Shown in pieces: positions 14,135 to 30,968 of a stretch of DNA of 64,000 bases. A program made the position numbers and the translations under genes. The stretch lies in assembly GCA_963783255.1 (NCBI GenBank), contig CAWAMP010000011.1, positions 96,257-160,256 on the forward strand, read 5' to 3'. Positions within the stretch are counted from its first letter, which is position 1; every line of letters starts with the position of its first letter. The notes beneath the pieces are model-generated. The model was not told the DNA's origin and did not search any database. It saw only the letters and a program-made list of their open reading frames with translations. This DNA is from an uncultured Acidobacteriota bacterium (GTDB lineage Bacteria > Acidobacteriota > Vicinamibacteria > Vicinamibacterales > Fen-181).

Positions 14135-14138
14135 TGCG

Positions 14139-15882: not shown

Positions 15883-15944
15883 CGGTGAAGCGTTGATTGT
15901 AGTCGAGAGCGAGACGGGTCAGACAACGGGTGCCCGGACGCCGT

Positions 15945-16557: not shown

Positions 16558-17712
16558 TCAGCCGGACGGCGCGGATGAGGTTGTGAGCGAGGTCGAGATC
16601 CCCGCCCAGCCAGAGTCGTGCCACTCGGCAAGCGCCTGCTCGACGCGCTCGGCTGCTCTCCCGTCCCACATGGGAATGTCCTGGCCGCCCGGCCACCGCC
16701 CCGACACCGCGTCGTCGAACGCCCGCCGGATCAGGCCGGCGTCGTTGCCAACCAGGCGGCTCGTGCCGAGTTCGAGGGTGATGGGCCGCTCCGTCGTCGT
16801 GCGAAGGGTCACGCAAGGGACGCGCAACACGCTTGTTTCCTCCTGCATGCCGCCGGAGTCGGTGAGGACGACGCGGGCCGCGCTCATCAGTGACAGGTTC
16901 TCGCAGTAGGGAAGAGGGTCGACAATGCGCAGGCGGGCGTCGGTGTTCGACGTCCACCGAATGCCCGCCCGGTCGGCTGCCGCTCTGGTGCGAGGATGCA
17001 TTGGGAAGACGAGGGGCAACCGCTCGGCCAATTCCCTGAACAACGCCAGCAGTGTTCCGAGCGTCTGCGGGTCGTCGACGTTCGATGGCCGATGGAGGGT
17101 AATCAGGCCGAACTCCCGGTGCCTGAGCGACATCGCGGCAGCGGTGTCCAGTTCGCCGGCCTTCTGCAACTCGGCGAACAGAGTGTCCACCATCACGTTT
17201 CCGACCAGCCGCACCTTGCGCGGCGCAACACCTTCGCGTTCGAGATTCCGGACGCCGCTCGGCTCGGACACCAGCAGCAAGCCGGCGACAGCGTCAGTGA
17301 GAATCCGGTTGATTTCCTCCGGCATCGTCCGGTCGAAGCTGCGCAGGCCCGCCTCCACGTGGCACACCGGAATGCCCAGCTTCACGGCAGCAAGGGCGCA
17401 CGCGATCGTGGAATTCACATCCCCGAACACGACGACCGCATCCGGACGCGTCTCGAGCAGGTGCGCCTCGTATCGCTCGAGGATGCGGGCGGTCTGGCTG
17501 GCGTGCGACCCGGAACCGACCTCCAGATGCGCGCTGGGCTTGGGGATCCCAAGGTCCTGGAAGAAGACCTCGTTCATGGCCGGGTCGTAGTGCTGACCCG
17601 TATGGATGATTCGAGGCTCGAGGCGGCCGGCAGCACGGATGGCGCGTTCGACCGGCGCCAGTTTCATGAAGTTCGGGCGGGCGCCGGCGACGAGGTCGAT
17701 GAGTGGTGGCAT
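16558..17712 (-). CDS. wecB: UDP-N-acetylglucosamine 2-epimerase (non-hydrolysing)
   Basis: Start at ATG 17710-17712. MPPLIDLVAGARPNFMKLAPV...IIHTGQHYD...VVVFGDVNSTIACALAAVKLGIPVCHVEAGLRSFDRTMPEEINR...DSGGMQEE, a full-length WecB pattern. Confidence 0.9.
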   Translation of the reverse strand: MPPLIDLVAGARPNFMKLAPVERAIRAAGRLEPRIIHTGQHYDPAMNEVFFQDLGIPKPSAHLEVGSGSHASQTARILERYEAHLLETRPDAVVVFGDVNSTIACALAAVKLGIPVCHVEAGLRSFDRTMPEEINRILTDAVAGLLLVSEPSGVRNLEREGVAPRKVRLVGNVMVDTLFAELQKAGELDTAAAMSLRHREFGLITLHRPSNVDDPQTLGTLLALFRELAERLPLVFPMHPRTRAAADRAGIRWTSNTDARLRIVDPLPYCENLSLMSAARVVLTDSGGMQEETSVLRVPCVTLRTTTERPITLELGTSRLVGNDAGLIRRAFDDAVSGRWPGGQDIPMWDGRAAERVEQALAEWHDSGWAGISTSLTTSSAPSG

Positions 17713-17894
17713 ATGGGGTCCGCTGTCGGCGCAGGCCTCGCCGCGATCATACAGCCAGTTCGAGCCGCCCGCTGCATGTCTGCTCAGGGTCGCGCGCTTG
17801 CGTTGATCTGAATGAAGTTGGAGACAAAAGGCTCCGTCGGGGAAGTCTTTTAAGACAAGAAGCTCAGAATATCGCCTGTTTTTGGGCAAAGCCC

Positions 17895-17909
17895 TGGTAT
17901 CACGCTTGC
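17895..17909 (+). promoter_or_regulatory. sigma-54-like -24/-12 promoter upstream of the HAF-repeat gene
   Basis: CTGGTATcacgcTTGCTc. The GG and GC dinucleotides have canonical spacing. It lies 76 nt before ATG 17985. Confidence 0.4.
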
Positions 17910-17984
17910 TCTGGGGGAGTCCGAGGGCCTCCCGGCCGGGCCCGAGCGGATGGTCCGGATTTCGGGACTCTAATCGGAGGAGCT

Positions 17985-19157
17985 ATGAGGAAGCGGCTGT
18001 TGATTCTCGTCGGGGCTGGGCTGCTGGTGCTGAGCGGCACGCGGGCGTCGTGGGCGCAGAAGGACGGCGTCTGGGACCTCGGCACGTACCCCGGCGGGAC
18101 CTGGGCCGACGCAAGGGGCATCAACAACGCCGGCGTCGTCGTTGGCTACGGGGACATCGCGAGCGGCTTCGACCGCGGAGTCGGAACCTCTCTGCGCGGC
18201 GGAGCGGGAGACTGGTTCGATGTCGGCACGCTGGGCGGAGACGATGGGTTCCCGGGGACGATATGCATGGGAGTGGCCGACACGGGGATGATCGTGGGCC
18301 TCTCGTTCCTGCCTGGGAACACGGCCGTCCACGCATTCGCGTGGACCACCAGGTCGGGCATGGCAGACCTCGGCACATTGAAGCCCACGGACACCGACAG
18401 CTACGCGTACAGCGCGAACAAGGCAGGGACCCTGATCGTCGGGTGGAGCGGCAGCGGGTGGTGGCCCGAGAACAGCCGGCCTGTCGTGTGGACCTCGTCC
18501 ACGGCGGCGTCGGAGCGGGAGCACGATGGCGATGGCGGGGTTGGCGCAGTCCGGACATGGACGATCAGCGAACTCGACACCACCGGCTTCCGGGGCCTGA
18601 CCAACTGGTCCGCGACCGCGGTCAACAACCGAGGGCAGATTGTCGGCTTCGGCCTGAGGAACGGTGTCTACGTCCCCGTGATCTGGAACCCCGGCCCGGA
18701 CGGCAAGGGGTGGAAGATCGCTGCGCTGCCTCTCTCGAATGCGTATCTCCAGGCGTGGCCGAACGACATCAACGAAGAGGGCCAGATCGTCGGGGGCGTC
18801 GCGTCCGTGACGTGGGACACGTTCCGCGCGGCGTTGTGGCAGCCCACGCCGGGCCGGACGAAGACCTGGTCCCTCGGCCTGCTGCCGTCCCTGAGCGCGG
18901 CGCACGTGTTCTGCGAGGCCATGGGCATCAACGGCCGCGGCGACATTGTCGGCTACGCCTGGGATGCCAACTACGTGGGCCCTGCGGCTCGCTGGTCCAG
19001 CAAGGATGCGCGGTTCGTCCAGTCGCTCGAGGAACTTGGGTTTCCCGCTGCGGACTGGAGCTGGGCGGTGAAGGTGAACGACGCGGGCGTCGCCGCGGGC
19101 GGATACGGCGCTGCGGATGACGGGTGGATGCGAATGGCCGCGATCCGCCTCCGCTAG
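17985..19157 (+). CDS. secreted HAF-family extracellular repeat protein
   Basis: GGAGGAG RBS and signal peptide MRKRLLILVGAGLLVLSGTRASWAQ. Repeated ...INNAGVVVGY..., HAFAWT...GMADLGTL, ...NNRGQIVGF..., ...INGRGDIVGYA units. No PEP-CTERM tail seen. Confidence 0.7.
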   Translation: MRKRLLILVGAGLLVLSGTRASWAQKDGVWDLGTYPGGTWADARGINNAGVVVGYGDIASGFDRGVGTSLRGGAGDWFDVGTLGGDDGFPGTICMGVADTGMIVGLSFLPGNTAVHAFAWTTRSGMADLGTLKPTDTDSYAYSANKAGTLIVGWSGSGWWPENSRPVVWTSSTAASEREHDGDGGVGAVRTWTISELDTTGFRGLTNWSATAVNNRGQIVGFGLRNGVYVPVIWNPGPDGKGWKIAALPLSNAYLQAWPNDINEEGQIVGGVASVTWDTFRAALWQPTPGRTKTWSLGLLPSLSAAHVFCEAMGINGRGDIVGYAWDANYVGPAARWSSKDARFVQSLEELGFPAADWSWAVKVNDAGVAAGGYGAADDGWMRMAAIRLR

Positions 19158-19260: not shown

Positions 19261-21108
19261 ATGCCAATCCGCGACCTTGCACGCCAGGCGAGGGTGCGCG
19301 GGCGCCTTCTGGCGCGCGCGTTCCTGCTGGTCTGGGAGAGCGCGCCCGGCTGGACCGGCGCGAGCATGGCGCTGGTCGCCGCGCAGGGACTGCTGCCGCT
19401 GGCGTCGCTTTATCTGCTGAAGCTGCTGGTGGACGCGCTGACGGCAGCGTTCGGCGCATCGCCGGCCGCATCGGCAGGAGCCGTGTCCGGCGCCGCGACG
19501 CCGGTGCTGATCGTCCTGTCGTTCGCCGCGGGCGTGGCGGTCCTCGAAGTCCTGTCTCGCACGCTCGCCTCCTACGTCGCTGAGGCCCAGACCCAGACCG
19601 TCATCGACCATCTTGCCGACATCGTCCACGCCCGGTCCGCCGCGCTCGACCTGAGCTACTTCGAGGACCCGCACTACTACGACATGCTGCACCGCGCGCA
19701 GGAAGAGGCGGGCTGGCGGCCGACCTACCTGGTCGGCAGCATGCTGCAGGCGGCGCAGGCGGCGCTCTCGCTTGTCGGCCTCGCCGGCCTGCTGCTCTCG
19801 TTCAACTGGGCGGTCGCCCTGGTCCTGTTCCTGGCGTCGATCCCGAGCGCCCTGGTGCGGCTCCGCTTCGCAGGCCGCCTCTACGCCTGGCATCGGACCC
19901 GTACCGCGGACGAGCGCCTGTCGTGGTACCACCACTCGCTGCTCACAGACGGCCAGTACGCCAAGGAAGTGCGGATGCTCGACCTCGCGCCAATGCTGGC
20001 GCGCCGCTTCCGCGAGCTGCGCGCGCGGCTTCGCGGCGAGCGGCTCGGCATCGCGCGCGGGCGCGTGACGGCCGACTCGATCGCCCAGGGCGGCGCGACG
20101 CTCGCCACGTTCGCCACCTACGGCGTCCTCGCCGTCGGCACCGTGCGCGGGGCTATCACGGTCGGCGGCTTCGTCATGTACTACCAGGCGTTCCAACGGG
20201 GACAAGGCTGGCTGCGCGACGTCCTCAATAACGTCGCGGACCTTTACGAGGACAGCCTGTTCCTCGGCGACCTGTTCGACTTCCTCGATTTGCAGCCGAA
20301 GACGGCAGGCGGCGCATCGCTTGCGCCGCGCCAGGCGCCGGCCGCAGGCGCGCCGCGCGAAGGCATCGTCTTCGACCACGTCAGCTACACGTATCCCGGG
20401 AGCACGCGCAAGGCGCTGGACGACGTGAGCTTCGTCATCCCGCCGGGACAGCACGCGGCCCTTGTCGGCGAGAACGGCTCCGGCAAGACGACCATCGTCA
20501 AGCTCCTGTGCCGGCTCTACGACCCGACCGAGGGGCGGATCACGATCGACGGAGTGGATCTTCGGGAGTGCGACCCGTCAGCGCTGCGACGGCGCGTCAC
20601 CGTGATGTTCCAGGACTACGCACGATACCAGCTCACCGCGCGCGAGAACATCGGGTTCGGGGACGTGGAGGCGATGGCCGACGACGGGCGCGTGGCGGCG
20701 GCGGCGGGGCGGGCGGGTGCCGACTCGGCAATCGAGGCGCTTCCGAGGCGCTACGACACGACCCTCGGCAGGTGGTTCGAAGGGGGGGTGGAGCTGAGCA
20801 CCGGCGACTGGCAGCGCGTGGCCCTCGCGCGAGCGTTCCTGCGCGACGCGGAGATCGTCGTCCTGGACGAGCCGACGAGCGCGCTCGACGCGAAAGTGGA
20901 GCACGAGGTGTTCGCCCGGCTCCGCGAGCTGGCGAGCGATCGGACCGCCGTGTTCATCAGCCACCGCATGTCAACGGCGCGTCTGGCGGACTGCATCTAC
21001 GTGCTGGCCCACGGGAAGATCGTGGAGCAGGGGAGCCACGAGGAACTCGACGCGCGCGGCGGGACCTACGCCACGCTGTTCAGATTGCAGGCTGAGAGTT
21101 ATCGGTAG
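19261..21108 (+). CDS. ABC exporter (fused permease + ATPase), candidate lasso-peptide exporter (D)
   Basis: Start taken at ATG 19261 (MPIRDL...). Six-TM N-terminal half. Walker A GENGSGKTT, signature LSTGDWQRVALARA, Walker B VVLDEPTSALD. Confidence 0.85.
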   Translation: MPIRDLARQARVRGRLLARAFLLVWESAPGWTGASMALVAAQGLLPLASLYLLKLLVDALTAAFGASPAASAGAVSGAATPVLIVLSFAAGVAVLEVLSRTLASYVAEAQTQTVIDHLADIVHARSAALDLSYFEDPHYYDMLHRAQEEAGWRPTYLVGSMLQAAQAALSLVGLAGLLLSFNWAVALVLFLASIPSALVRLRFAGRLYAWHRTRTADERLSWYHHSLLTDGQYAKEVRMLDLAPMLARRFRELRARLRGERLGIARGRVTADSIAQGGATLATFATYGVLAVGTVRGAITVGGFVMYYQAFQRGQGWLRDVLNNVADLYEDSLFLGDLFDFLDLQPKTAGGASLAPRQAPAAGAPREGIVFDHVSYTYPGSTRKALDDVSFVIPPGQHAALVGENGSGKTTIVKLLCRLYDPTEGRITIDGVDLRECDPSALRRRVTVMFQDYARYQLTARENIGFGDVEAMADDGRVAAAAGRAGADSAIEALPRRYDTTLGRWFEGGVELSTGDWQRVALARAFLRDAEIVVLDEPTSALDAKVEHEVFARLRELASDRTAVFISHRMSTARLADCIYVLAHGKIVEQGSHEELDARGGTYATLFRLQAESYR

Positions 21109-21145
21109 GGCGAGGCCTTAGTCTTGCCTGGCACTTATTTCGACT

Positions 21146-21298
21146 TCTTTCCCCTCCGGGCTGCGGCGATCGGGTTGTCCGGCTTCCCGCTGCGATAGCC
21201 CTGGGTCAGGTCGGTGACGCTTCCGTAGACGACGAGCTTCGGGGCGCGATACACCTTCCGGGGCGTTGGCCGGCCGCTGGATTCCATCCTGCCCTCCC
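21146..21298 (-). CDS. lasso-peptide precursor A1 (50 aa)
   Basis: Hand translation gives MESSGRPTPRKVYRAPKLVVYGSVTDLTQ / GYRSGKPDNPIAAARRGKKSK. GGAGGGGAGGG precedes the ATG. The leader motif YxAPxLVxYGSVTxLTQG is shared with the second precursor. Thr is at -2, the core starts with Gly and Asp is at core position 8. Confidence 0.75.
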
Positions 21299-21408
21299 CT
21301 CCGGCTCGTCGCGTCCATGAAGAGGCCGGTCGATTTCACCGGCCCGTGCTCGGGCGTCCTGATCCCGGTATCGGCCAGACGGCAGATCTCCAATAGCGCA
21401 AACCACAT

Positions 21409-21423
21409 GCCAGCGAGTAGGGC
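21409..21423 (-). promoter_or_regulatory. sigma-54 (-24/-12) promoter upstream of precursor A1
   Basis: The minus strand reads CTGGCATgtggtTTGCgc, which is TGGCAT-N5-TTGC. It lies about 110 nt upstream of ATG 21298. Confidence 0.55.
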
Positions 21424-21457
21424 TGGCCTTTCGGCGTGTCAGTAGAGGTAGTTACGG

Positions 21458-21545
21458 CGTGTCGATGTGGCGCGGGCGTGTCGGTGTGGCGCGGGCGTGT
21501 CGGTGTGGCGCGTGTCGGTGTCGCGCGGGGCTTCAGCCCCGCGGG
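21458..21545. repeat. REP-like array: 3-4 tandem ~19-nt units ending in the canonical palindrome
   Basis: cgtgtcgatgtggcgcggg cgtgtcggtgtggcgcggg cgtgtcggtgtggcg cgtgtcggtgtcgcgcggggcttcagccccgc, with the hairpin at 21525-21542. Confidence 0.85.
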
Positions 21546-22513
21546 AGGCCCCGCCTGACGTCCGCCAGTATTGCTTCCGTCACCGCGCCGAGATCGGTGG
21601 CGTCATCGCGGACGGTCAGTTGGCGGACCGGGACGCGCGCGGCGAGGCGGGCGAAGACGTCGAGCGCGCGCGTCCGGAGCTCGGCGTCGAGGACGTAGTT
21701 CATGTAGGTGCGGGAGACGAGCGCCATCAGGGCCTCGTGCCCCTTCAGGTCATCGATCGCGGCGGGCCGGTCGAGATCGGGTCTGCGTTCGTGCAGCACA
21801 TAGATCGCGCCGAGGGGTACCGGCCCGGCCGGGAAGCGAGTCCCGTCGGCCGTCAGTTCGAGGTGGCGCTTGTCGGTGGTGTCGCCGCCGTGCGGCAGCG
21901 CGTCCTCCGTGCCGTAGAGCGCGCGCACCGCGTCGGGCGCCAGTCGCACGACGTTGTGCCCTGGAAGCACGTGGTACTCGCCATCCGACTTGAAATCCAG
22001 CGCCAGCACATCGTCCGTCAGCGCGGCGAATCCGCGCCGGACGAACGCCGCCGCAGTCGTGGACTTCCCCGCGCCGGAGTGCCCGAGGAACGCCACGGCA
22101 CGGCCGTCGATGACGACGGCGCTGGCGTGGAGGCAGGGCGTGCCGCGCAGGTGCAGCACGAAGCCGATGATGGGCCCGAACAGGCAGGTCAGGATCTCGC
22201 CAATCGGCAGGTTCGCGGGCCAGCGGGCCCAGACCCGCAAGCCCGCCCGGTCGACCAGGAACTCCGACGCGTCCCAGTAGCGCACGCGGTAGAACTCCTG
22301 GCCGCACTGCGACACGACCAGGGTCGGTTGGCCCGCCTCGTCCGTCTCCGCGTCCGTGTAGCACACGCGCTCCGGCGCCACGAGCAGCTCCGCAGGCCAC
22401 GCGGACCCGCCGAGCAGCGACACTTCGAGATCGACGCTCTCCGAACGCGGCTCACCGCACGGTTGGTCGCGATCGATGCGGACGCGCAGGCCGAGCACGT
22501 CAACGCAGGACAT
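21533..22513 (-). CDS. HPr-kinase-like (HprK C-terminal domain) protein 1
   Basis: Start at ATG 22511-22513 (MSCVDVLGLRVRI...). P-loop LHASAVVIDGRAVAFLGHSGAGKSTTAAAF. The ORF-track extension to 22756 is not protein-like. Confidence 0.75.
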   Translation of the reverse strand: MSCVDVLGLRVRIDRDQPCGEPRSESVDLEVSLLGGSAWPAELLVAPERVCYTDAETDEAGQPTLVVSQCGQEFYRVRYWDASEFLVDRAGLRVWARWPANLPIGEILTCLFGPIIGFVLHLRGTPCLHASAVVIDGRAVAFLGHSGAGKSTTAAAFVRRGFAALTDDVLALDFKSDGEYHVLPGHNVVRLAPDAVRALYGTEDALPHGGDTTDKRHLELTADGTRFPAGPVPLGAIYVLHERRPDLDRPAAIDDLKGHEALMALVSRTYMNYVLDAELRTRALDVFARLAARVPVRQLTVRDDATDLGAVTEAILADVRRGLPRG

Positions 22514-22819
22514 GATCTTGCCCACCCCCAGTCTCGAGAGCTGGCGGCAACGACCGCGCCTGGAGGGTGGCGCAGGCGACCCCTCCCCTTGTGAAGAACC
22601 GCTGCACCGCCTCACCGTCTCTTCGTCTTGCGGTTGGGGCACACGCCGGGCCTGTCGCCCCCATCCCCAACCGCGCCATTGTTGGCCGGCTGGCGGTTCT
22701 CGGGACTCTGCCGATGGCGAATGTCCACGGCTCGCTTGGCGCCACCCTCCAGACACGGCCGGGCATCGAGGGCGAGACTGGGGATCGGCAAGAAGAGATG
22801 ATTGGGGTTCGCGGCGGAT

Positions 22820-23299
22820 TCAATGCGCGGCCCACGATTCCGGGAGGTCGTCTCCCTCGAAGGGCGAGAAGCGTTCGCCGACGTCCGGGTCGTCGTTCAG
22901 GACGAGGCCGCCGAGTTCCACCCAGGCGTGCGCCTCCAGGTGGCCGGCCGCCGTGCGGACGCCGATGCGCAGCGCGCTCTCGATGCCGCGGCGCCGCAGG
23001 ATCCACCAGAGGGCGACGGACCGCGTGAGGCAGTTCGGCCGGCCGGGAATGCGGAAGGCGGCGGCGTTCACCAGCCGGCCAGCCTCGCGCGCGCGCTGTG
23101 CGTCGGGCACTCCCGTGCCTTCGCCGATGACGGGGTGGCGGGAGAAGAACCGGCAGACGCGCCGCAGTCCGAAGATGCGGATGGCAGCCGCTACCGAGGG
23201 CAGGAGCGCAACGAGATGGAGAACGAGGCGCCGGTCCGGCGCGGGCAGGTCCCGCCACTTGCGCCAGGCCGACTGCCGGCGCGCGTCGGCTTCGCTCAT
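22820..23299 (-). CDS. lasso-peptide leader protease B2 (transglutaminase-like)
   Basis: Catalytic Cys context RPNCLTRSVALWWILRRRGI and His context GHLEAHAWVELGG. 159 aa. Confidence 0.85.
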   Translation of the reverse strand: MSEADARRQSAWRKWRDLPAPDRRLVLHLVALLPSVAAAIRIFGLRRVCRFFSRHPVIGEGTGVPDAQRAREAGRLVNAAAFRIPGRPNCLTRSVALWWILRRRGIESALRIGVRTAAGHLEAHAWVELGGLVLNDDPDVGERFSPFEGDDLPESWAAH

Positions 23300-24195
23300 G
23301 GACGACCGCTGACGCCGACGTCTGCGAGGACCGCTTCCCGCACGCGGTCGATCTGCTCAAAGTCGTGCGGGTAGGACAGGCGCCGCATCAGCCCGGTGGC
23401 GGCGAGAGCGGTCAGCCGCGTGAAGTCGGCGGCGAGTTGTTCACGATCCGGCTCGCCAATCCGGTAGGTGCAGTCCATCAGGTCGCGAAATCCGTCGTTC
23501 CAGTCAGGCGCGACAATCTCGATCGACGAGCCGGGGTCCTGCGGCAGGAGGCGGTAGATTCTGGCAAGCGGAACGTCTTCGTTCGGCGGCGGCGCGCCGA
23601 ACGACATTTGCCGCTTCTCTTCATCCCGCGGGATCGATCTTCCCGACTCCGCAGGAATGCCGAGTCGCGCGAGGGCCCTCTCCCGCAGCCTCAGGTCCGG
23701 CAGGCCGGGGTGGCAGCGAACACGCCCCTCGTGGTTCACCAGCGGGAGGCAGTCGTCGGCGAGAAGCGTGTAGCCGCGTCGGCCGAAGCTGGCCGCGAGC
23801 GTGGATTTTCCGGCGCCGCTCGTGCCAATGAAGCCCACCGCCAGCGAGGACGCGACGAGCACCGCGCTCGCGTGCAGGACGACCTGCGACAGGCTCAGGC
23901 AGAGCGGAAACGTTTCGTTGAGGAAGGAGTAGCGTGTGTAGTCCGGCGTCGCCGCAGAGCCCGGGTAGCAGACGATCGCCCTGGTGGCCGGGATGATCTC
24001 GAACTCCGTCAGCTCCGAGTTCTGCACCCAGCAGACCGACTTGTCCAGCTCGTACTGCAGAACGGCCGGCCGCGTGTGGCAGACGTCGAACGTGAAGTCC
24101 GGGGATTCGGCTGCCACGGGAGCAAGACCTGGGAACTCCAGGTTCGTCGCCACCGTGCATCCGAGGATGCGGTAGCAGAAGCTTCCGTTCCGCAT
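23296..24195 (-). CDS. HPr-kinase-like protein 2
   Basis: LHASAVLVASSLAVGFIGTSGAGKSTLAASF. Same fold pattern as 21533-22513 but strongly diverged. It overlaps B2 by 4 nt. Confidence 0.75.
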   Translation of the reverse strand: MRNGSFCYRILGCTVATNLEFPGLAPVAAESPDFTFDVCHTRPAVLQYELDKSVCWVQNSELTEFEIIPATRAIVCYPGSAATPDYTRYSFLNETFPLCLSLSQVVLHASAVLVASSLAVGFIGTSGAGKSTLAASFGRRGYTLLADDCLPLVNHEGRVRCHPGLPDLRLRERALARLGIPAESGRSIPRDEEKRQMSFGAPPPNEDVPLARIYRLLPQDPGSSIEIVAPDWNDGFRDLMDCTYRIGEPDREQLAADFTRLTALAATGLMRRLSYPHDFEQIDRVREAVLADVGVSGRP

Positions 24196-24196
24196 C

Positions 24197-25339
24197 CTAT
24201 CGCGAGTACCTGGTTACCACTTCCGCCACGAATTCGGCTGCTGCTGCCCGGGTGGGAAACAGATCGGCATGGGCGCGGCCGAGTTCCTCTTCGATCTCCG
24301 CGACCGTCTTCCGGCCGTCGCACAGGTTCACGACCGTGCGCCGTGCCGCGCCCCACGGGTTGAGCGTCGGCACGTGGTCCGGCCTCGTCCTGACCATGTC
24401 CTCGCGGCACAGCAGCATGCCCTTGAACGTGGAGTGCGCGAACTGGTGGGCTGGAACCGTCGCGCCTGCGGGGAAGACCCTGACGTCCCAGGAGATCATG
24501 GTGTCGCGCGAGAAGAGCGTCATGTGCACGAAGACGCGGTCGCCGGGCCCCACGCCCACCGAATGCCGGATCGGCAGGAAGACGTTCGCGCGGTTGATCC
24601 GCCGATCCGAGAGCGGGGAGTTGGTCATCGTCACGCTCTCGGACATCTGCGCCGAGAACCACCCGCCGATCCCGTCGAGGCGGCCCGGCCTCGAGACAGT
24701 CGTCCAGGCCTCGAGTTGGATGTGCGCGCCCGTGTATTCGCGGATGTCCACCGAGCCAGCCGTCGCCGACTCGCCCAGCAGATCCTCGGCGCGCAGCTTC
24801 GCGCCGTAGCCGGTGTTCGAGGCGATGTCGAACGCCGGGCGGAAGTCGAACCCCGCGCGCGGCTGTAACCAGAAGTCGATCTGAGGCCGCATCTCGTCGG
24901 ACTCGATCGGCGCGAGGTGGAAGTCGATCCTCCCCGGGATCATCCGGCCGTCCGGCTTCATCAGGCGACGCCGGGCGTCGGCGAAGTACTCGAGGACGCC
25001 CGCGTCGAACCCGAACCGGCCGATCTGGTCGGCGACGACGACGTCCACCTTCTCGGGGAGATCCAGCCGGGTGGACAGTCCCTTGACGAAGACCACCCTG
25101 TCCTGAAGCCCGTTGGCCGCGCTGATCTCCCGCGCGAGGCCGACAAACGCCGTCTCCTCCACCGAGTAGACGCGCTTCGCGCCCGCGCGGCAGGCGAGCA
25201 TACCGAGAATGCCGGTGCCGCAGCCAAGGTCGAGGACGAGGTCGCCAGGCCTGACGACTTCGCCGATGGCGCGCTCGAACGACTCGAGGCGCGGGATGTC
25301 CGCCAGGTACTGGCGGTGCTCGTCAACAACCAGGGACAC
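24197..25339 (-). CDS. PRMT-like class I SAM methyltransferase fused to a PqqD/RRE-like C-terminal domain
   Basis: SAM motif I VLDLGCGTGILGMLACRAGAKRVYSVE and post-I/II VDVVVADQIG, with an overall PRMT-like beta-barrel half. C-terminus AARRTVVNLCDGRKTVAEIEEELGRAHADLF...AAAEFVAEVV resembles PqqD helices. GTG start. Confidence 0.65.
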   Translation of the reverse strand: MSLVVDEHRQYLADIPRLESFERAIGEVVRPGDLVLDLGCGTGILGMLACRAGAKRVYSVEETAFVGLAREISAANGLQDRVVFVKGLSTRLDLPEKVDVVVADQIGRFGFDAGVLEYFADARRRLMKPDGRMIPGRIDFHLAPIESDEMRPQIDFWLQPRAGFDFRPAFDIASNTGYGAKLRAEDLLGESATAGSVDIREYTGAHIQLEAWTTVSRPGRLDGIGGWFSAQMSESVTMTNSPLSDRRINRANVFLPIRHSVGVGPGDRVFVHMTLFSRDTMISWDVRVFPAGATVPAHQFAHSTFKGMLLCREDMVRTRPDHVPTLNPWGAARRTVVNLCDGRKTVAEIEEELGRAHADLFPTRAAAAEFVAEVVTRYSR

Positions 25340-25389
25340 TGAACGCTGTTTTCAGGGGAGGGACGAGTGGACTGTCGGAAGTTCTGAGT

Positions 25390-25539
25390 CTACAGGCAGT
25401 GCTTGCTCATGCCGGGCTGGCCGCCATCGGCCCCGCTGCCGGAGCCGCCCTGAGTCAGCTTGGTGACTGAGCCGTAGGCAACCAGCCGGGGCGCGGCGTA
25501 GGGCTTCTTCGGGGCGGATATCGTGGGGGTCGCGTTCAC
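25390..25539 (-). CDS. lasso-peptide precursor A2 (49 aa)
   Basis: Hand translation gives MNATPTISAPKKPYAAPRLVAYGSVTKLTQ / GGSGSGADGGQPGMSKHCL. GTG start with AGGAG 9 nt upstream and an in-frame TGA just before it. Same leader motif as A1, with core Gly1 and Asp8. Confidence 0.75.
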   Translation of the reverse strand: MNATPTISAPKKPYAAPRLVAYGSVTKLTQGGSGSGADGGQPGMSKHCL

Positions 25540-25651
25540 GCAGCTAATCTCCTGCTGTCATTATACCATCCGCGGCCGGACGTCCTTGTGGCGCCGGCGG
25601 TTGCCGCATGCTACCCACAATGGAGGATCTCGTCCAGTCTGGTCGAGGCCT

Positions 25652-27517
25652 TTATTGCGCAAGCAGCCATGTTTCGACCGCGTACGCTGACCACACAGCC
25701 CAAGCCCCTCCCGGGTTGCCGCCCGAACGGTAGCCCGAGAGGCCGTTCCTGCACATCTCGGCCAGGCGGCCTGCGTTCACCCATCCCCGGTCCGCGATGC
25801 GCATCCGTTCGAACAGCCTGGGCCCACCAAGAGCACGCAGCGGCTCCCAGATCAGGTGCGAGAACTCCGCCTTCGTCCGCCGTCCCAGGACCGAGTCGGG
25901 GAGCAGCCCCTTCATGGCGTGGCGCAGCAGGAACTTCCGCTCGCCGCCGCGCCTGTGGCACTCCTCCGGGACAGCGAACGCGAACTCGATGACGCGGCGG
26001 TCGAACAGCGGGTGGCGCTGGTCCACACTCTGCCGGGCAGAAGCCCGGCTGCACATCTCCCAGCTGAGCGGGAGCCAGCCGTTCTCGAGCGCGTAGAATC
26101 TGTTGCGCTGGGCGTTCGACGGGAACGTGCGACCCGCGTATATCGCGTCGCAGCGGTCGTCCAGGGTCGTGCGGGCGCGAAACTCCCTTGTCAGCCACGG
26201 CCACCGGTTCCGGCGTCGGTCTCTGGCTCCGAGAAGCCGCGAGAAGGGCCAGAAGGCCTGCGCCGCCCCTCGAAGGAGGAGCCGGAATGCCGCGTTTCGG
26301 CCGAGGTCGCCCACGTCGTGCATGAATTCCGACAAGGCGACGCCGAGACGGAACCTTCCGAGCATGTCCGGATAGGGGTTGTCCGCGCCGGAGAACCAGT
26401 CGTCTCCCCCCGAGCCCGTCAGGATCACCCGGAATCCGCGCTCGTGCTGCAGGCCCTCCCGCTGGGCCACGGCGAGGCTGACGGGATTGGCCGTCAGGTA
26501 CCGGGACTCGCGAACTTCGCGGGCGAACTCTTCGACCTCTAGTTGCGGGACCGACGCGTTGTTCCGGAGGTTCCACATCCGGACGACGTCATCGATGTAG
26601 GCGCTCTCGTCGCACTTCATCCCAGGGAAGACCGAGGAGAAGGTCTCGAACCCCCACGCCGCCGCGTGCCCTTCGCGGAAGAGGTGCTGCGCCATGCCGA
26701 CGACGGACGACGAGTCGAGGCCGCCGCTGAGCTCCGCGCCAATCGGGCCGTTGCTGCGCATGCGGCAGCGGACCGCATCGCGAAACAGCTCGAAGAAGCG
26801 CTCCGCGTATTCCTGAGGGTTCCCGAACCGGATCTGCCTGTCGAGGTCGATGTCCCAGTAGCGCTGGCAGCGAAGCCCGTCGGCGGTGACGATGAGGAAG
26901 TGGGCGGGCGGAAGGCGGCGGACGCCCTGGTATAGAGTTTCGTCGCGGCTCGTCACTTCGACCGCGAGGAACTCGGCGGCCAAGCCCTCATTCGGCGTCG
27001 TGTCGATCGACGGAGCCTCCAGGATTTGAGCGACCTCGGAACCGAAGACGAACTGCGAGGGGTCGTGGTGGTAGTAGAAGGGTCTGCAGCCCAGAACGTC
27101 ACGGGCGCAGTAGAGCTGTCTGTCCTTCGGGTCCCAGATGGCGAAGGCGAAGTCGCCCAGCAGGCGGGCGGCGCAGTCGTTCTTCCAGAGGAAGTACGCG
27201 CACAGGACCAGTTCGGCGTCGGTGTCGTCGCGGGGCTGGACGCCTTTCGCGCTGAGGTCGCGCCGCAGTTCCTCGCGGTTGTCGATGCGGCCGTCGAAGA
27301 CCAGGCGGAAGCGACCGGTCGAGTCCGACAGCGGCTGGTTCTCGGCGGCAGCTTCTGGCGTCGTATGGAACGCGCCGTAGCCCAGGGCCACATTCCCGCC
27401 CATCCATGCCGCGGTGCCATCCGGGCCCCACGGGCGCATGAGGAGCATGACCCGGTCGAAGACGTCCCGGTCGATCTCCCTGCCGTCGAAGTTCCAGATG
27501 CCTGCGATCCCGCTCAT
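25652..27517 (-). CDS. lasso-peptide cyclase C (asparagine-synthetase-like)
   Basis: N-terminal MSGIAGIWNFDG (Ntn amidotransferase-like). PP-loop GAELSGGLDSSSVVGMA. 621 aa. Confidence 0.85.
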   Translation of the reverse strand: MSGIAGIWNFDGREIDRDVFDRVMLLMRPWGPDGTAAWMGGNVALGYGAFHTTPEAAAENQPLSDSTGRFRLVFDGRIDNREELRRDLSAKGVQPRDDTDAELVLCAYFLWKNDCAARLLGDFAFAIWDPKDRQLYCARDVLGCRPFYYHHDPSQFVFGSEVAQILEAPSIDTTPNEGLAAEFLAVEVTSRDETLYQGVRRLPPAHFLIVTADGLRCQRYWDIDLDRQIRFGNPQEYAERFFELFRDAVRCRMRSNGPIGAELSGGLDSSSVVGMAQHLFREGHAAAWGFETFSSVFPGMKCDESAYIDDVVRMWNLRNNASVPQLEVEEFAREVRESRYLTANPVSLAVAQREGLQHERGFRVILTGSGGDDWFSGADNPYPDMLGRFRLGVALSEFMHDVGDLGRNAAFRLLLRGAAQAFWPFSRLLGARDRRRNRWPWLTREFRARTTLDDRCDAIYAGRTFPSNAQRNRFYALENGWLPLSWEMCSRASARQSVDQRHPLFDRRVIEFAFAVPEECHRRGGERKFLLRHAMKGLLPDSVLGRRTKAEFSHLIWEPLRALGGPRLFERMRIADRGWVNAGRLAEMCRNGLSGYRSGGNPGGAWAVWSAYAVETWLLAQ

Positions 27518-27612
27518 CTAGGAAATCAAGAGCTTTGCTTCGGGCAGATCCCTGCGGCGCCCTTCGGCCCGCTCAGGGCGTGGTGAGCTCGTCGAACCAC
27601 GCGGCATAGTCG

Positions 27613-27894
27613 TCACTGAGAGACCGTGAGCAGCCCGTGCTCCACCAGCTCGCCGATCAGCTTCTCCATGTCGGTGCGCAGTTGCGCCGGCTCGACGTCG
27701 TACTCGGCGGCCAGGCTGTCGTAGGCGGCCTGTATATTGCGGGCGTCCGTGAGGAGCGTCCACATCCTCGTCCCGACCTCGTCGAGGCCGAAGTACTTCT
27801 CGGTCTTGAGGTTGAGGACGACCGACTCGCCCTCGAGGCTACGGACCAAAACGCCGTCGGGCACGGACACGCGCGCTGTGAACGGTATGTTCAT
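27613..27894 (-). CDS. PqqD-family RiPP recognition element (lasso B1)
   Basis: 93 aa. ...VLVRSLEGESVVLNLKTEKYFGLDEVGTRMWTLLTDARNIQAAYDSLAAEYDVEPAQLRTDMEKLIGELVEHGLL, the typical PqqD pattern. Confidence 0.85.
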   Translation of the reverse strand: MNIPFTARVSVPDGVLVRSLEGESVVLNLKTEKYFGLDEVGTRMWTLLTDARNIQAAYDSLAAEYDVEPAQLRTDMEKLIGELVEHGLLTVSQ

Positions 27895-27900
27895 TGGTGT

Positions 27901-27960
27901 GTGTGGCGGTCGTCGCCGTGGCGCGGGGCCTCGCTGTGGCGCGGGGCTTCAGCCCCGCGT
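27901..27960. repeat. REP-like element
   Basis: gtgtggcggtcgtcgccgtggcgcggggcctcgctgtggc followed by the palindrome gcggggcttcagccccgc at 27941-27958. Confidence 0.85.
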
Positions 27961-29049
27961 GATGATCTTCCCCAACACCCTGAACGGCCGTATGACATGC
28001 AGCAGCGGCTTCAGGCGCGGCGGCAGTGGCAGGAAATCGTTGTCCGTCTGGTTCGCCTCAAGCGCCCGCCGCCACACATATCGGGCCTTGTCGCGGAGCG
28101 TGCCCGCCATCCGCAGCTGCATCATGGCGCCAGCCGGCCGGCCTGCGACGTCACCGTCCTCGGTGAAGAGGCTGCGTTCGATCTGCCGAGCGACGCTCAC
28201 TGCAATCGTGTCGCGCCTGGCCTCCGCGATCACATCGGGCGGCACCGGCGCCGAAAGCAGATCGCCGGCAAGAAGCAGCGCAACGTGGAACATCCGCCGG
28301 GTTCGACGGTCGGCGAGCAGCGCGTGCCAGCCAATCGGGGCCACCCGCACGAGGTTGGCGACGTCGCAGATCCACCCTAGCGACGTCCAGCAGTGCCGCG
28401 CCCCGTGCAGGGCGAGACAGGCAAACAGATCGTCAGCGCCAAACGTCGGCAGCGCGCCGCCGGCCATGTCTAGCCGGTGGACACGCGTCAGCGCCGCATC
28501 CGTGTCGACCGATGGCAGGTAGTGTGGTGAGACGGCCCAGTGGAGGTCCACGTCACAACCGGCCGGTGTCGCCAGACCGATTTCGCAATTGCCGCTCAGG
28601 TCTGCAGCACCTGGGGCACCCTTCTGGACACACCCGTTCGCAATCAGAACCGAGATCGCTCGGGTTCTGTCGCCCGGCCGAACCAGGATGTCCAGGTCGC
28701 AGAACTCTCGGAGTGCGAGGTCGCCGTAGGCCCACGCCGCGAGTGTCGGCCCCTTGTAGGCGATGGCGGGAACGTTCTCGGCCTCCAGCCAGCCCATGAC
28801 CGCTTTCAATTCGGCGGTCATCATCATGTTGCGGGCGGCATTCGCGAGGAATGCCTTGCGGAGATCTTCAGCGACCTCTGCCGGGATCGCGTCCGGGGGG
28901 TGCTGCCTCAGGCGCGAGTAGAGCAGCGGCAGCAGGCCGTGTCGGGCGGCCTGGCCCTTGACCGCTTCCCAGTCCGTCACCGCCTCGGCCGCCCGGCGCA
29001 ACGCCGCGGCATCCGCGCCGACGCGAGCCGCCTGGATCAGGATGTCCAC
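27949..29049 (-). CDS. uncharacterised nucleotidyltransferase family protein (NTP_transf_5-like)
   Basis: Start set at GTG 29047-29049, the first start codon after the upstream gene's stop. HGLLPLLY...AYKGPTLAAWAYGDLALREFCDLDILV...DVDLHW matches the family often seen next to lasso genes. Confidence 0.65.
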   Translation of the reverse strand: MDILIQAARVGADAAALRRAAEAVTDWEAVKGQAARHGLLPLLYSRLRQHPPDAIPAEVAEDLRKAFLANAARNMMMTAELKAVMGWLEAENVPAIAYKGPTLAAWAYGDLALREFCDLDILVRPGDRTRAISVLIANGCVQKGAPGAADLSGNCEIGLATPAGCDVDLHWAVSPHYLPSVDTDAALTRVHRLDMAGGALPTFGADDLFACLALHGARHCWTSLGWICDVANLVRVAPIGWHALLADRRTRRMFHVALLLAGDLLSAPVPPDVIAEARRDTIAVSVARQIERSLFTEDGDVAGRPAGAMMQLRMAGTLRDKARYVWRRALEANQTDNDFLPLPPRLKPLLHVIRPFRVLGKIITRG

Positions 29050-29065: not shown

Positions 29066-30968
29066 CTATGCCGACCGTGCTTCGGCCGGCCGCTGCACGA
29101 GGACCGGCTCCGCCGCCAGATCACCGTCCGGGCGAAGGGCCCCGAGAGGGTCCCTGACCTCTTCGAACCGGATTTCCATTCTGACCAGCCTCGCACCCGC
29201 CCGCGTACAAGCCTCCCGCGCCAGCGCAACCGCAGATTCGGGGATCTTGCGTGTCGAAATGACCACCGCGCCGACCCGGTTCGAGCGGACGCAGGCCTCG
29301 AGGTTGTTGACGTTCCCGACTATGGGCACGCCGTTCACGGTCTTCCCGACCCGCAGTGGGTCATCGTCGATGAACCCGACCGCGTGCAGATCCACGTGCC
29401 GGTTCGACAGCATCTCCCGCAGCGTGCTGGCGCCTCCCTGGCCGGCCCCATAGATGAGTGCGGGTACGCCGCCCTTCACCGCGCGCTCGCGGCTCGCATC
29501 CAGAATGCGATAGGACATCCGGGACCCGAGCGCGAGCCCCATTGCCACCAGCGCGTAGATCAGGAAGAGCGACATCGCGGCCGGCTGCTGCAGAACCACA
29601 TTCACGCCAACAAACGCAAGGAACGACGCGGCGACGATTGCGGCGCAAATGCGCACGCTGTCGTAGACGCTGGCGAGGCGCCAGGATCCGCGGTAGACGC
29701 GCAGCAGCCAGAGGATCAGGACCGTCGTCGGAATCAGCGTGGCCGTCATGGCGGTTTGCAGTGCGCGGTACGACCTCAGCGTCCAGTCGTCGTGTTTCAG
29801 CCCGATCGCCGCGAACACCGCGATGCCGACAAACAGGATGTCGATGAAGACGACGAAGATCGAACGCCTGAGGACGGGCGTGTCGTACAGCCGCAGGACC
29901 ACGCCGGAACGAATGACCGCAAACTCCTCATAGCCGAGTCGGCCGACGCCCACGAAGGCGGCCAGTAAAAGGCCGGCCAACAGGAGGCCGGCGCGTTCGG
30001 CCGTAAGGAACACCGAGACGAGGCCAGCGGCCGCGAGACAGAGGCCGGCGGCGTAGAGTACCAGAACGGCCCGTCGCTGGTCGAGTCCGAGGTCAAGCAG
30101 GCGATGATGCACGTGCTCCCGGTCTGCAGTGAAGATGCGGCCCCTCCCATGCCAACCGGCGGCGCCGATCGCCCGCCGCACGATCGACAGCAGTGTGTCG
30201 GCGACCGGCACGCCGAACACGATGATGGGAAGGAGTGTGGCGAAACCCGCGGACACGGTCGAGCCGCCGCGCAGCGCAAGGCAGGCCAGGGTGAAGCCAA
30301 TGGCCGTCGCGCCCGTGTCTCCCAGGAAGCTCGACGCTGGATGGAAGTTGTAGGGGAGGAAGCCGGCCAGCGCGCCGGCGAGAATCATCGCGGCGACGGC
30401 GATTCCCGGCTGGTGGACGAGCAAGAATACCGCGACGAGGCTGCCGGCAGAGATGAATGCCAGGCCGGCGGAAAGGCCGTCCAGTCCGTCCACCAGGTTG
30501 AAGGCGTTGGTGACGCCGATCAACCACATGACCGAGATCGGCGCGGCCCACATGCCGATATGCACCGTGTAGCCCAAGACGTGCACGTCGGGGTTCAGGC
30601 TCACGCCGAGCGCCACGGCGACGATTGCACCGGCGACGTGGCCCGCAAACTTGGGACCCGCTGGCAGGCGCCTGACGTCGTCGACGAACGAGACGACGAC
30701 GATGGGGATGAGCCCGAGGGCCAGCCCGAACCAGAGGGAGTCTGCCTTGAACACGGAGGTGGTGGCCGACACGAACGCGAAGACCAAGAATCGCAGCAAC
30801 CATGACGGCCAGGCCCCCGAGACGCGGGGTCGGTGTGGCGTGGATCTTCCGCGCCGTGGGGCGATCGACAGCCCCGAGCCGCAGCGCCAGCCGACGGGCG
30901 AGGGGCGTCAGCAGCCAACTAAGGACTGCTGCGCCGATACCTGGCAGGACGAGAAACAGCATCGGCAT
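29066..30968 (-). CDS. WecA/MraY-like polyprenyl-phosphate sugar-1-phosphate transferase fused to a CapD/WbpM-type N-terminal membrane + Rossmann module; apparent frameshift near 30783-30800
   Basis: ORF 30093-30968 gives the N-terminus MPMLFLVLPGIGAAVLSWLLTPLARRLALRLGAVDRPTARKIHATPTPRLGGLAVMVAA. ORF 29066-30799 then continues with VDDVRRL...NAFNLVDGLDGLSAG...FLGDTGATAIGF. After that come 4-5 TM helices and ALIYGAGQGGASTLREML...FIDDDP...GVPIVG. Confidence 0.75.

Follow-up and report, generated by a model that had tools for sequence, protein, structure and literature searches.

Published precedents for the tailoring of lasso peptides comprise phosphorylation of a C-terminal Ser, phosphorylation of Ser3 and hexosylation that depends on a nucleotidyltransferase. 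In the paeninodin type, the kinases PadeK, ThcoK and SyanK act on the linear precursor. This type resembles the locus described here in its split B1/B2, its cyclase C and its ABC exporter, and in an HPr-kinase-like kinase whose catalytic set is His-Lys-Asp-Asp; the relatives of our kinase K1 and precursor A1 likewise have precursors ending in Ser. In the locus itself, however, the Ser of A1 is penultimate (KKSK), precursor A2 has no C-terminal Ser, and there are two kinases, one of which is obligately paired with a PRMT-fold methyltransferase (MT), an arrangement unknown in the paeninodin group. The pseudomycoidin cluster of Bacillus pseudomycoides also combines a kinase (PsmK) with an NTP transferase (PsmN), the latter being needed for the addition of one or two hexoses to phospho-Ser (PMC6993621). 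The DLD motif of our nucleotidyltransferase (NT) is comparable to the catalytic pair D134/D136 described for PsmN, whereas the two clusters differ in phylum, in precursor and in gene order, and the psm cluster lacks an MT. The Bsf cluster of Bradymonas sediminis shares the kinase (BsfK), the nucleotidyltransferase (BsfN) and the split B. There, Ser3 of the ring region is the residue that BsfK phosphorylates, with stimulation by the RRE (PMC10368454). The catalytic motif and spacing of this kinase match those of both our kinases, and A2 carries a Ser3, but Bsf has Ile(-2) where our precursors have Thr(-2), a single precursor and no MT. The kinase and NTP_transf_5 precedents invoked in a preliminary description of this DNA are borne out by these reports (PMC8498205, PMC6993621, PMC10368454). 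Finally, SAM-dependent tailoring of lasso precursors is known from the lassomycin-type StspM, an enzyme that methylates the linear precursor at its C-terminal carboxylate, and from the PIMT-type enzymes of cellulonodin-2 and lihuanodin. These belong to other fold families than our PRMT-like MT, and the Pfam matches of the latter at E <= 0.01 include neither the StspM-type nor the PIMT-type family. The StspM reaction, C-terminal carboxylate methylation, is one candidate for the MT.

Positions 19.2-29.05 kb of the window (the whole 64,000-nucleotide stretch analysed) hold a complete split-B lasso-peptide (RiPP) cluster. Its core genes encode B1 (an RRE), B2 (a protease), C (a cyclase), the ABC exporter and two precursors; accessory genes encode the MT, the NTP_transf_5 nucleotidyltransferase and two kinases of the HPr-kinase-like type. 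The features are as follows:

19261..21108, plus strand: ABC exporter (D), an MsbA-like half-transporter, convergent with A1
21135..21287, minus strand: precursor A1, 50 aa, NF033521 match
21398..21412, minus strand: sigma-54-like -24/-12 element TGGCATGTGGTTTGC, ~111 nt 5' of the A1 ATG
21533..22513, minus strand: kinase K1, 326 aa, HPr-kinase-related, partner of A1
22516..22793, no strand: hairpin-forming insertion, ~280 nt, MITE-like, between B2 and K1
22820..23299, minus strand: leader peptidase B2, 159 aa, transglutaminase-like
23296..24195, minus strand: kinase K2, 299 aa, HPr-kinase-related, conserved partner of the MT
24197..25339, minus strand: PRMT-fold SAM methyltransferase (MT), 380 aa, with an extra C-terminal three-helix domain
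25390..25539, minus strand: precursor A2, 49 aa, GTG start, NF033521 match
25652..27517, minus strand: lasso cyclase C, 621 aa, Asn-synthetase-like
27613..27894, minus strand: RRE/B1, 93 aa, PqqD family
27949..29049, minus strand: NTP_transf_5 nucleotidyltransferase (N), GTG start

An ORF check and profile searches recovered all ten ORFs of the preliminary description on the strands and in the families it had named; A1, given there as 21146-21298, had to be moved by 11 nt. B1 matches PqqD (E 1.1e-16) and lasso_PqqD_Bac (E 1.5e-14) among the Pfam/NCBIfam profiles. B2 matches Transglut_core3 (E 3.5e-26) and NF033537 lasso_biosyn_B2 (E 2.3e-28; 99.2 bits, above the cutoff of 33), and its translation contains the motifs PNCLTRS (Cys) and AHAWVE (His). 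C matches Asn_synthase (E 8e-42) and, as its top NCBIfam hit, the lasso cyclase NF033535 (E 3.3e-129), with 432 bits, below the cutoff of 525; the PP-loop SGGLDSS can be read in its translation. Thus, the profile test suggested in the preliminary description placed both B2 and C in lasso families. NT matches PF14907 (NTP_transf_5) at E 1.2e-53. The exporter matches ABC_tran (E 1.1e-30), with MsbA-type NCBIfam matches covering residues 66-626 and a GTG at 19216 as an alternative start.

Both precursors exceed the NF033521 lasso_leader_L3 cutoff of 19 bits, A1 with 24.8 and A2 with 26 bits. They carry the same leader motif, Y(-17)xxP(-14)xL(-12) plus T(-2), the spacing of which, as read from the two translations, agrees with the BsfA motif. 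The A1 ATG is preceded by the ribosome-binding site GGAGGGGAGGG and the A2 start by AGGAG. For both cores, GYRSGKPDNPIAAARRGKKSK in A1 and GGSGSGADGGQPGMSKHCL in A2, a G1-D8 ring is predicted, so that with leader motif and ring in common they are not wholly the unrelated cores they had been taken for. A1 contains three Arg residues (R3, R15, R16) and a conserved C-terminal KKSK, which is invariant in 5/5 orthologues, including those of loci L001, L043, L045 and L046. A2 has no Arg and ends in Cys-Leu. Every core examined has a Ser or Thr in its ring, and none of the ring positions is always Ser/Thr. For the lasso forms, the calculated monoisotopic neutral masses are 1683.709 Da (A2 core) and 2238.246 Da (A1 core), to which a phosphate would add 79.966 and a methyl group 14.016.

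Homologous clusters with short leader-bearing ORFs are abundant, as the preliminary description had required for its claim to stand. Lasso genes adjoin an MT homologue in 41/41 genome loci from Acidobacteriota, Methylomirabilota, Nitrospira, Burkholderiales, Thermoleophilia and others, usually in the order B1-B2-C-A-MT-K. In most loci an A2 homologue lies directly 5' of the MT, and where the flank is long enough, the first gene detected beyond the MT is in most loci a kinase; an NT homologue is detected in 17 of the 41. Most MT-linked precursors have a Met-rich tail followed by a Cys-Leu end: 22/25 listed cores end in CL (exceptions: L003, L016 and L048), as do nine of the ten close A2 homologues. 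The MT-kinase module is a large and widespread, uncharacterised multi-phylum family, present in many uncultured soil bacteria. The accessory set had been called both uncharacterised and unusual. The former holds, and a literature search found no paper that describes a lasso cluster with a PRMT-like MT; the latter does not, given the size of this family.

K1 and K2 share only ~30% identity. Their matches to Hpr_kinase_C (K1: E 2.4e-5, 24 bits; K2: E 7e-4, 20 bits) lie below the gathering score, and with HprK_rel_A (E 1.8e-6 and 7.5e-6, respectively) both remain under the Pfam and NCBIfam cutoffs. Nonetheless, both retain the full catalytic motif H...GxxGxGKS...DD, which agrees with the earlier naming of two HPr-kinase-like ORFs. 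In K1 it is spaced as in BsfK (H148-G163-G166-G168-K169-S170-D186-D187); in the K2 family H108, G124, G127, G129, K130, S131, D147 and D148 are invariant in 23 members, and among PDB entries the family profile matches HPrK/P best (E 3.9e-5). The K2 stop overlaps the start of B2. Orthologues of K1 (61-65% identity) directly follow a second cyclase (C'), and in two of their loci, L049 and L050, no MT is found and the precursors end in a C-terminal Ser (...PNKS, ...KIKS). In L048 both modules are adjacent, with two cyclases. More distant K1 homologues (40-45% identity) occur in B1-B2-C-A-K-MT-ABC-NT clusters with peptides ending in ...KTS or ...HKT. As K1 orthologues stand behind a cyclase of their own, with precursors ending in Ser, we consider the locus to be a composite of two lasso pathways served by one B1/B2/C set, a merger instead of one elaborate two-kinase pathway.

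The reading that we favour, by a modest measure, is that the cluster comprises two tailoring modules sharing one B1, one B2 and one C. B1 would bind the leader motif of both precursors, B2 would cleave after T(-2)-Q(-1), and C would adenylate Asp8 and link it to Gly1, closing a ring of eight residues through which the tail is threaded; export of the products would fall to the convergent ABC transporter. Observed directly are the identities of the genes, their catalytic motifs, the conservation of their order and the features of the precursors; from these we infer every chemical step beyond leader cleavage and ring closure. Module 1 (A2-MT-K2) would be the local copy of the widespread module. 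As a best guess, K2 would phosphorylate a Ser/Thr of its core, after which the MT would methylate a non-arginine acceptor; candidates are the thiol of the near-invariant Cys, the carboxylate at the C-terminus and the phosphate. Module 2 (K1-A1) would be the remnant of a paeninodin-like pathway that lost its own cyclase; here the most likely target of K1 is the conserved Ser near the C-terminus, within KKSK. By analogy with PsmN and hexose, a phosphate probably receives a further group from the NTP_transf_5 enzyme. Counted against the two-module reading are the sub-cutoff kinase scores, the lack of a C-terminal Ser in A2 and of an invariant ring Ser/Thr, the acidic loop of the MT, the three listed cores without CL, the lack of a second cyclase in this lineage, the Asn8 of the L045 and L046 A1 orthologues and the hairpin between B2 and K1.

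Some of these points feed an alternative that we regard as unlikely, though worth weighing, in which A2 is the sole true product and K1/A1 the decaying leftover of a second lasso cluster without its cyclase, yielding a linear peptide at most, or nothing. Elsewhere K1 orthologues always have their own C' before them, and it is missing here. In L045 and L046 the A1 orthologues carry Asn8 and lack any acidic residue with which to close a ring, which implies that A1 may not always be cyclised. Moreover, K1-A1 is split from the upstream operon by the hairpin insertion. This consists of nested inverted repeats (I1 and I3), its terminal arm occurs at only these two sites within the window, and its RNA fold reaches -169.5 kcal/mol (z -6.4); judged from match coordinates, the B2-K1 gap is ~67 nt in L001 and ~78 nt in L044. 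Against decay, A1 retains its Asp8 and an intact leader motif, along with the invariant KKSK, and is preceded by a strong ribosome-binding site, while K1 retains every catalytic residue. Also, the ~140 nt upstream of A1 are conserved across relatives despite only ~79% protein identity. This region includes the sigma-54-like element, whose GGCA-N6-TTGCG core is kept in L001, L043, L045 and L046; the pattern has two matches in the window against 0.2 expected, and a sigma-54 function is putative.

The two-module reading assigns the MT to A2, and a genuine protein-arginine N-methyltransferase acting on the Arg residues of the Arg/Lys-rich A1 tail, the role implied by the preliminary description, is improbable. 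The PRMT relationship itself is clear: the MT has Pfam matches to PrmA/PRMT_C, PDB profile matches to PRMT2/6/1/CARM1 (E about 1e-40; 2.6e-40), an AF2 model (pLDDT 91) with a Rossmann domain and a beta-barrel, Foldseek matches to PRMT6/PRMT2/CARM1 (E about 1e-28; TM 0.66-0.71) and >1600 homologues. It shares the two-domain fold, motif I, the N-terminal H..L.D..R helix and, with D104, the first double-E acidic residue with eukaryotic type I PRMTs (PRMT1/2/3/6/8, CARM1), and A1 would offer R3, R15 and R16. Yet an invariant I248-N-R250 replaces the THW loop, and in the acidic loop D104 is invariant and followed by D/E112, the second acidic residue being shifted or variable. Furthermore, the MT is bacterial, RiPP-linked and associated across phyla with A2-type cores, many of which contain neither Arg nor Lys (e.g., SGTASLGDGGPMMMACL, GSNGNGADAGNGMTMMCL), so that Arg methylation cannot be its conserved role; the K1/A1-type clusters L049 and L050 do without it. 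Cys cannot be the universal acceptor either, since CL is absent from three listed cores. The acidic loop would better suit a cationic acceptor than a thiol, carboxylate or phosphate. The "PqqD-like tail" ascribed to this enzyme is not demonstrably PqqD: residues ~298-380 form a family-specific three-helix domain, for which kinship to PqqD/RRE is weakly hinted.

The cluster is embedded in a polysaccharide locus, as noted before, with Wza/Wzc/Wzx-type flanking genes. Full-length Wzc-like genes also lie <=10 kb away in 8/29 long loci. That the genes belong to the polysaccharide pathway, with C as an EPS-associated amidotransferase and NT as a sugar-nucleotide enzyme, is scarcely credible and largely refuted by the profile results: despite the match of C to the XrtA/PEP-CTERM amidotransferase TIGR03108 (E 2.2e-65), the co-directional start 16 nt after EPS genes and the recurrence of such genes beside the family, C fits the lasso cyclase far better and its N-terminus MSGI carries a Ser where the glutaminase Cys would stand, the cluster includes B1, B2 and two precursors with canonical leaders, and in many loci no EPS genes are detected around the same gene set as far as the fetched flanks reach. 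The 16-nt spacing reported earlier is exact (WecA-like stop at 29066, NT start at 29049), and the NT homologues of L001 and L043 align from residue 1, which supports its GTG start. The co-directionality described earlier applies to the operon and not to the ABC gene, which is convergent with it. In L001, L043, L045 and L046 this gene occupies the same convergent position, with 86-97% identity over the aligned 3' parts.

On sequence grounds, the region 19261-29049 of the window is a genuine lasso-peptide gene cluster. Translation of the window, which has a G+C content of about 68%, returned all open reading frames (ORFs) named in the preliminary description on the strands given there, and the GC content of these ORFs varies across codon positions as it does in real genes. 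Profile searches confirmed the families proposed for the RRE protein (B1), the leader peptidase (B2), the cyclase (C) and the nucleotidyltransferase (NT), with the following matches:

22820-23299, B2: Transglut_core3 (E 3.5e-26); NF033537 lasso_biosyn_B2 (99.2 bits vs. a cutoff of 33)
25652-27517, C: Asn_synthase (E 8e-42); best NCBIfam match lasso isopeptide cyclase NF033535 (E 3.3e-129)
27613-27894, B1: PqqD (E 1.1e-16; 61.3 bits vs. a cutoff of 23.4)
27949-29049, NT: NTP_transf_5 (E 1.2e-53)
ABC exporter: MsbA-like by profile search

The score above the NF033537 cutoff places 22820-23299 in the lasso B2 family, and its translation contains the Cys (PNCLTRS) and His (AHAWVE) of the catalytic motifs. 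Likewise, 25652-27517 belongs to the lasso C family, NF033535 being its best NCBIfam match. Its translation carries the PP-loop SGGLDSS and starts with MSGI..., with Ser in place of the glutaminase Cys. An EPS amidotransferase was ruled out for this gene, as TIGR03108 matches with an E of only 2.2e-65 against 3.3e-129 for the lasso cyclase and the glutaminase Cys is absent. NT starts with a GTG (29049), 16 nt past where the preceding WecA-like gene stops, as first noted.

Both precursors score above the cutoff of the NCBIfam lasso leader model NF033521, though the coordinates first proposed for A1 were 11 nt off and should read 21135-21287. Counted back from the predicted cleavage site, Tyr-17, Pro-14, Leu-12 and Thr-2 occur in both leaders; this motif has been reported to be what B1 recognises (PMC10368454). 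The cores are GYRSGKPDNPIAAARRGKKSK (A1) and GGSGSGADGGQPGMSKHCL (A2), each with a predicted Gly1-Asp8 ring; in dehydrated form, their predicted monoisotopic neutral masses are 2238.246 Da (A1) and 1683.709 Da (A2). They had been called unrelated, which holds for their sequences but not for the leader type and ring size that they share; one B1/B2/C set therefore plausibly serves both. At their C-terminal ends, A1 reads ...KKSK (Ser penultimate) and A2 ...HCL. In the paeninodin/pseudomycoidin type, the C-terminal Ser of the precursor is the phosphorylation site, whereas neither A1 nor A2 ends in Ser. Two A1 orthologues (L045:804-950 and L046:536-682; 82-86% identical) have Asn8 and are entirely devoid of Asp and Glu, which precludes a macrolactam; their leader, KKSK, ribosome-binding site and upstream region are nevertheless retained. 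Given this Asn8, A1 is less secure as a lasso substrate than A2. In the close A2 homologues P0122, P0123 and P0129, His, Asn or Thr rather than Gly is found right after the Thr-Gln cleavage motif, which suggests either an unusual ring-forming first residue or a shifted cleavage site.

The methyltransferase MT (24197-25339) had been described as PRMT-like with a PqqD-like tail. The first part of this description is supported for the fold. The AF2 model of MT is confident (pLDDT 91), and the MT family profile matches PRMT2/6/8/3/1 and CARM1 in the PDB over residues 8-275 (E ~1e-40), with the same proteins being retrieved by Foldseek (E ~1e-28). MT comprises a Rossmann SAM domain and a beta-barrel, with conservation of motif I (VLDLGCGTG) and of the H..L.D..R helix at the N-terminus. 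In type I PRMTs, two Glu residues of the double-E loop hold the guanidinium, and the THW loop is likewise a PRMT feature. In MT, the position of the first double-E Glu is taken by the invariant D104, and D/E112 is one position off the second; this second acidic residue is missing in the K-MT clade enzymes of L051 and L052. Unlike type I PRMTs with their THW loop, MT has I248-N-R250, of which I248 and R250 are invariant in the family.

The second part of the description gained no significant support, the similarity of the tail to PqqD falling short of significance in every test. MT residues ~298-380 form three confident helices; a separate AF2 model of the tail likewise has three confident helices, with low-confidence strands, PqqD being composed of three strands and three helices. 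The Pfam PqqD model matches the MT tail with an E of 0.076-0.094 and matches two of 34 family tails, alignment with the B1 profile by hhalign gives a probability of 0.1, and a profile search of the tail against the PDB found no significant PqqD or RRE match. Foldseek ranked PqqD 3g2b first for the tail model, at an E of 0.97, and superposed the tail on B1 6jx3_B with 1.5 A across 48 columns, at an E of 5. A library-wide profile search (203 representatives at E <= 1e-10) showed that the tail is almost confined to the C-terminal end of MT-family proteins of ~375-390 amino acids.

More than 1600 homologues of MT were found. In the one-genome-per-species contigs, MT occurs at 41 loci, in Acidobacteriota, Methylomirabilota/Rokubacteria, Nitrospira, Burkholderiales, 'Deltaproteobacteria', Thermoleophilia and Acidimicrobiales, and lasso genes adjoin it in 41 out of 41. 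Homologous clusters with leader-bearing short ORFs thus exist in relatives. The genes are usually arranged as B1-B2-C-A-MT-K, and in many cases a second RRE gene and/or NT and ABC come next; the precursors upstream of MT are A2-like. A second PqqD/RRE gene directly follows the kinase in L004, L009, L011, L019, L038, L043 and L048; the window contains neither such a gene nor a remnant. A degraded copy was considered for the 306-nt gap between B2 and K1, where no similarity was found, the gap being a hairpin insertion. The closest genome relative, L001 (Acidobacteriota MAG MFD00032.bin.2.43), has the same gene order and an MT that is 89% identical. It seems to have a tandem pair of A2-like genes, and frame breaks in its NT, C and one A2 copy are probably assembly indels.

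The cores linked to MT narrow down its possible acceptors. A Cys-Leu terminus is present in 22 of the 25 listed MT-linked cores and in nine out of ten close A2 homologues, mostly preceded by a Met-rich stretch (e.g., PMMMACL, GMTMMCL, MMNMQCL) and in some cases by a His-rich one. Cu(I)-binding motifs typically have such a Met/His/Cys-rich composition. Several cores lack Arg, Lys, His, Asn and Gln altogether (SGTASLGDGGPMMMACL), so that methylation of Arg, or of any side-chain nitrogen, is not the conserved function of MT. By this test, which is genomic and indirect, MT almost certainly does not methylate arginine. Neither is Cys a universal acceptor, as the MT-linked cores of L003, L016 and L048 lack it. 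Ser or Thr occurs in the ring of all MT-linked cores examined. The near-invariant Cys-Leu terminus represents a concrete site to examine.

K1 (21533-22513) and K2 (23296-24195), the two HPr-kinase-like proteins, share about 30% identity and match Hpr_kinase_C weakly (24 and 20 bits, respectively). Both stay below the trusted cutoff of 200 for HprK-related kinase A (TIGR04352), with 27.3 bits for K1 and 25.2 for K2, and matches to this model are weak for all 23 kinase relatives. The best solved-structure match of the kinase family profile is HPr kinase/phosphorylase (HPrK/P; E 3.9e-5). The His, GxxGxGKS and Asp-Asp are present in K1 and K2 and spaced as in BsfK, the kinase of the Bradymonas sediminis bsf lasso cluster, for which mutagenesis showed the importance of H148, G163, G166, G168, K169, S170, D186 and D187 (PMC10368454). 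The catalytic residues are invariant in the 23 relatives, and K1 and K2 share the kinase signature of the paeninodin/pseudomycoidin type (His, P-loop Lys/Ser, Asp-Asp). Known lasso kinases act on a C-terminal Ser (PadeK, ThcoK, SyanK, PsmK) or on Ser3 (BsfK). A 407-aa form of K1 (start 22756) was rejected, as its extension is of low complexity and the alignment with relatives begins at the ATG of 22513.

K1 and an A1-type precursor (KKSK) occur together only in the close relatives L001, L043, L045 and L046; L042 and L044 are short fragments with K1 alone, and a K1 search in metagenome contigs yielded five close relatives only. K1 orthologues with 61-65% identity immediately follow a second Asn-synthetase-like cyclase, which is the shorter one. 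The A1-like precursors beside such an orthologue, GYGIGKPDNGVSGSHSMTHPNKS in L049 and GGEIGGPDNGVTGSHYKIKS in L050, both end in Ser, the residue that is phosphorylated in the paeninodin type, and no MT is present in these two clusters. In L048, both modules are adjacent, with two cyclases. This pattern suggests that the cluster of the window is a merger of two lasso modules, in which an MT-K2 module serving the Cys-Leu peptide would have been joined by a K1 module of the terminal-Ser type minus its cyclase. Such a composite cluster would be a natural test of one B1/B2/C set handling two precursors with separate kinases. More distant K1 homologues (40-45% identity) occur in B1-B2-C-A-K-MT-ABC-NT clusters, one of them from the cyanobacterium Chamaesiphon. 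Their peptides end in ...RRKTS or ...RHKT, and their MT is ~30% identical to that of the window over its full length, including the tail.

Upstream of the lasso cluster and on the same strand lies a Wzx/Wzy-type polysaccharide locus, which also includes glycosyltransferases, two methyltransferases and a heparinase-II/III-like protein. Its main landmarks are:

29066-30799, WecA-like/CoA_binding_3 priming transferase
43634-45040, flippase
50850-53168, Wzc
53168-54085, Wza

On the other flank, polysaccharide genes span 11539-17889, among them a UDP-sugar dehydrogenase and a UDP-GlcNAc 2-epimerase (16558-17889). The ORF between this epimerase and the ABC exporter (17703-19157, plus strand; 484 amino acids) matches DUF3466 weakly and has a hydrophobic stretch resembling a signal peptide at its N-terminus. 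The G+C content drops to 58-64% in the middle of the polysaccharide locus (36000-50000), compared to 67-70% elsewhere, and low G+C is likewise found in horizontally exchanged serotype-variable regions. Among the 29 MT loci of at least 12 kb, eight (L006, L011, L013, L017, L020, L025, L032 and L034) have a full-length Wzc homologue within 10 kb of MT, and Wza, WecA-like or Wzy genes are found near other MT loci, including L052. The binomial tail, run as 8/33 (n = 33), amounts to 1e-5 to 5e-12 under a chance of 0.5-3.5% per locus that is assumed from estimated Wzc copy number and genome size; the linked loci are not all independent and hence represent perhaps five or six lineages. In the window and in the Methylomirabilota loci, the EPS genes, NT and the lasso genes follow each other in this order on a single strand. 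The repeated Wzc/Wza linkage hints at a role in the matrix or envelope rather than simple antibiosis. A possible reason for the linkage comes from PsmN, the NTP transferase of the pseudomycoidin cluster, on which hexosylation of phospho-Ser depends (PMC6993621): the donor for NT may come from the neighbouring sugar locus.

The main interest of the window is its uncharacterised but conserved MT/kinase module with peptides ending in Cys-Leu, the design with two kinases and two precursors, and the recurrent link to polysaccharide export. A speculative and rather improbable reading is that the kinase and the PRMT-fold MT install an unprecedented lasso modification and that the peptides are functionally tied to the Wza/Wzc-type exopolysaccharide machinery instead of merely having it as a passive neighbourhood. 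The modification may be a methylated phosphate ester or an S-methylated or C-terminally modified Cys-Leu terminus; in the latter case, the Met/His/Cys-rich tail may become a metal ligand of the thioether type, for Cu(I). The tie to EPS could be that NT attaches a sugar which the locus provides, or that sigma-54 regulates the peptides together with matrix production.

Besides the NT-like PsmN, known lasso tailoring includes the C-terminal O-methyltransferase StspM (LasF being its lassomycin counterpart) and PIMT-type aspartimide formation. The MT family is undescribed in the accessible lasso-peptide literature, from which subscription journals are largely missing, so this absence is no proof. 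The soil-metagenome clusters with 'phospho- or methyltransferases' in the metanodin paper encode a different, FkbM-family methyltransferase and gave no product. The PRMT fold is known mainly from eukaryotic arginine methylation; non-arginine methylation by MT would be a new reaction for this fold, and the window offers a way into a large family in which a PRMT-fold enzyme is dedicated to RiPPs. To our knowledge, lasso peptides are valued scaffolds with few characterised tailoring enzymes, and those from uncultured soil phyla are essentially unexplored by experiment.

Two regulatory or structural DNA features stand out:

21398-21412, minus strand, sigma-54-type -24/-12 match (TGGCAT-N5-TTGC), ~111 nt upstream of A1
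22516-22793, between B2 and K1, hairpin-forming insertion of ~280 nt with nested inverted repeats (z -6.4)

The window contains two sigma-54-type matches against 0.2 expected, the second one at 7665-7679 (minus strand), and the element upstream of A1 is conserved in four relatives. The EPS locus contains a gene resembling a sigma-54 activator (enhancer-binding protein) with no receiver domain (56094-57095, minus strand). A sigma-70 promoter scan gave no sites, terminator-like sites occur at chance level only, and an Rfam scan of 19-31 kb returned nothing at E <= 0.1. In this genome of 68% GC, an extended -10-like TGgTATAAT (25560-25568, minus strand) precedes the A2 GTG by 21 nt; no -35 element was seen for it, and its function is doubtful since it is very near the ribosome-binding site. 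Just past the K1 stop, a 19-nt unit (GCGTGTCGGTGTGGCGCGG) occurs in about four tandem copies (21457-21529) and is missing from the intergenic regions of relatives. The gap between B2 and K1 is short in L001 and L044, and the element at 22516-22793 could be MITE-like or a terminator/attenuator.
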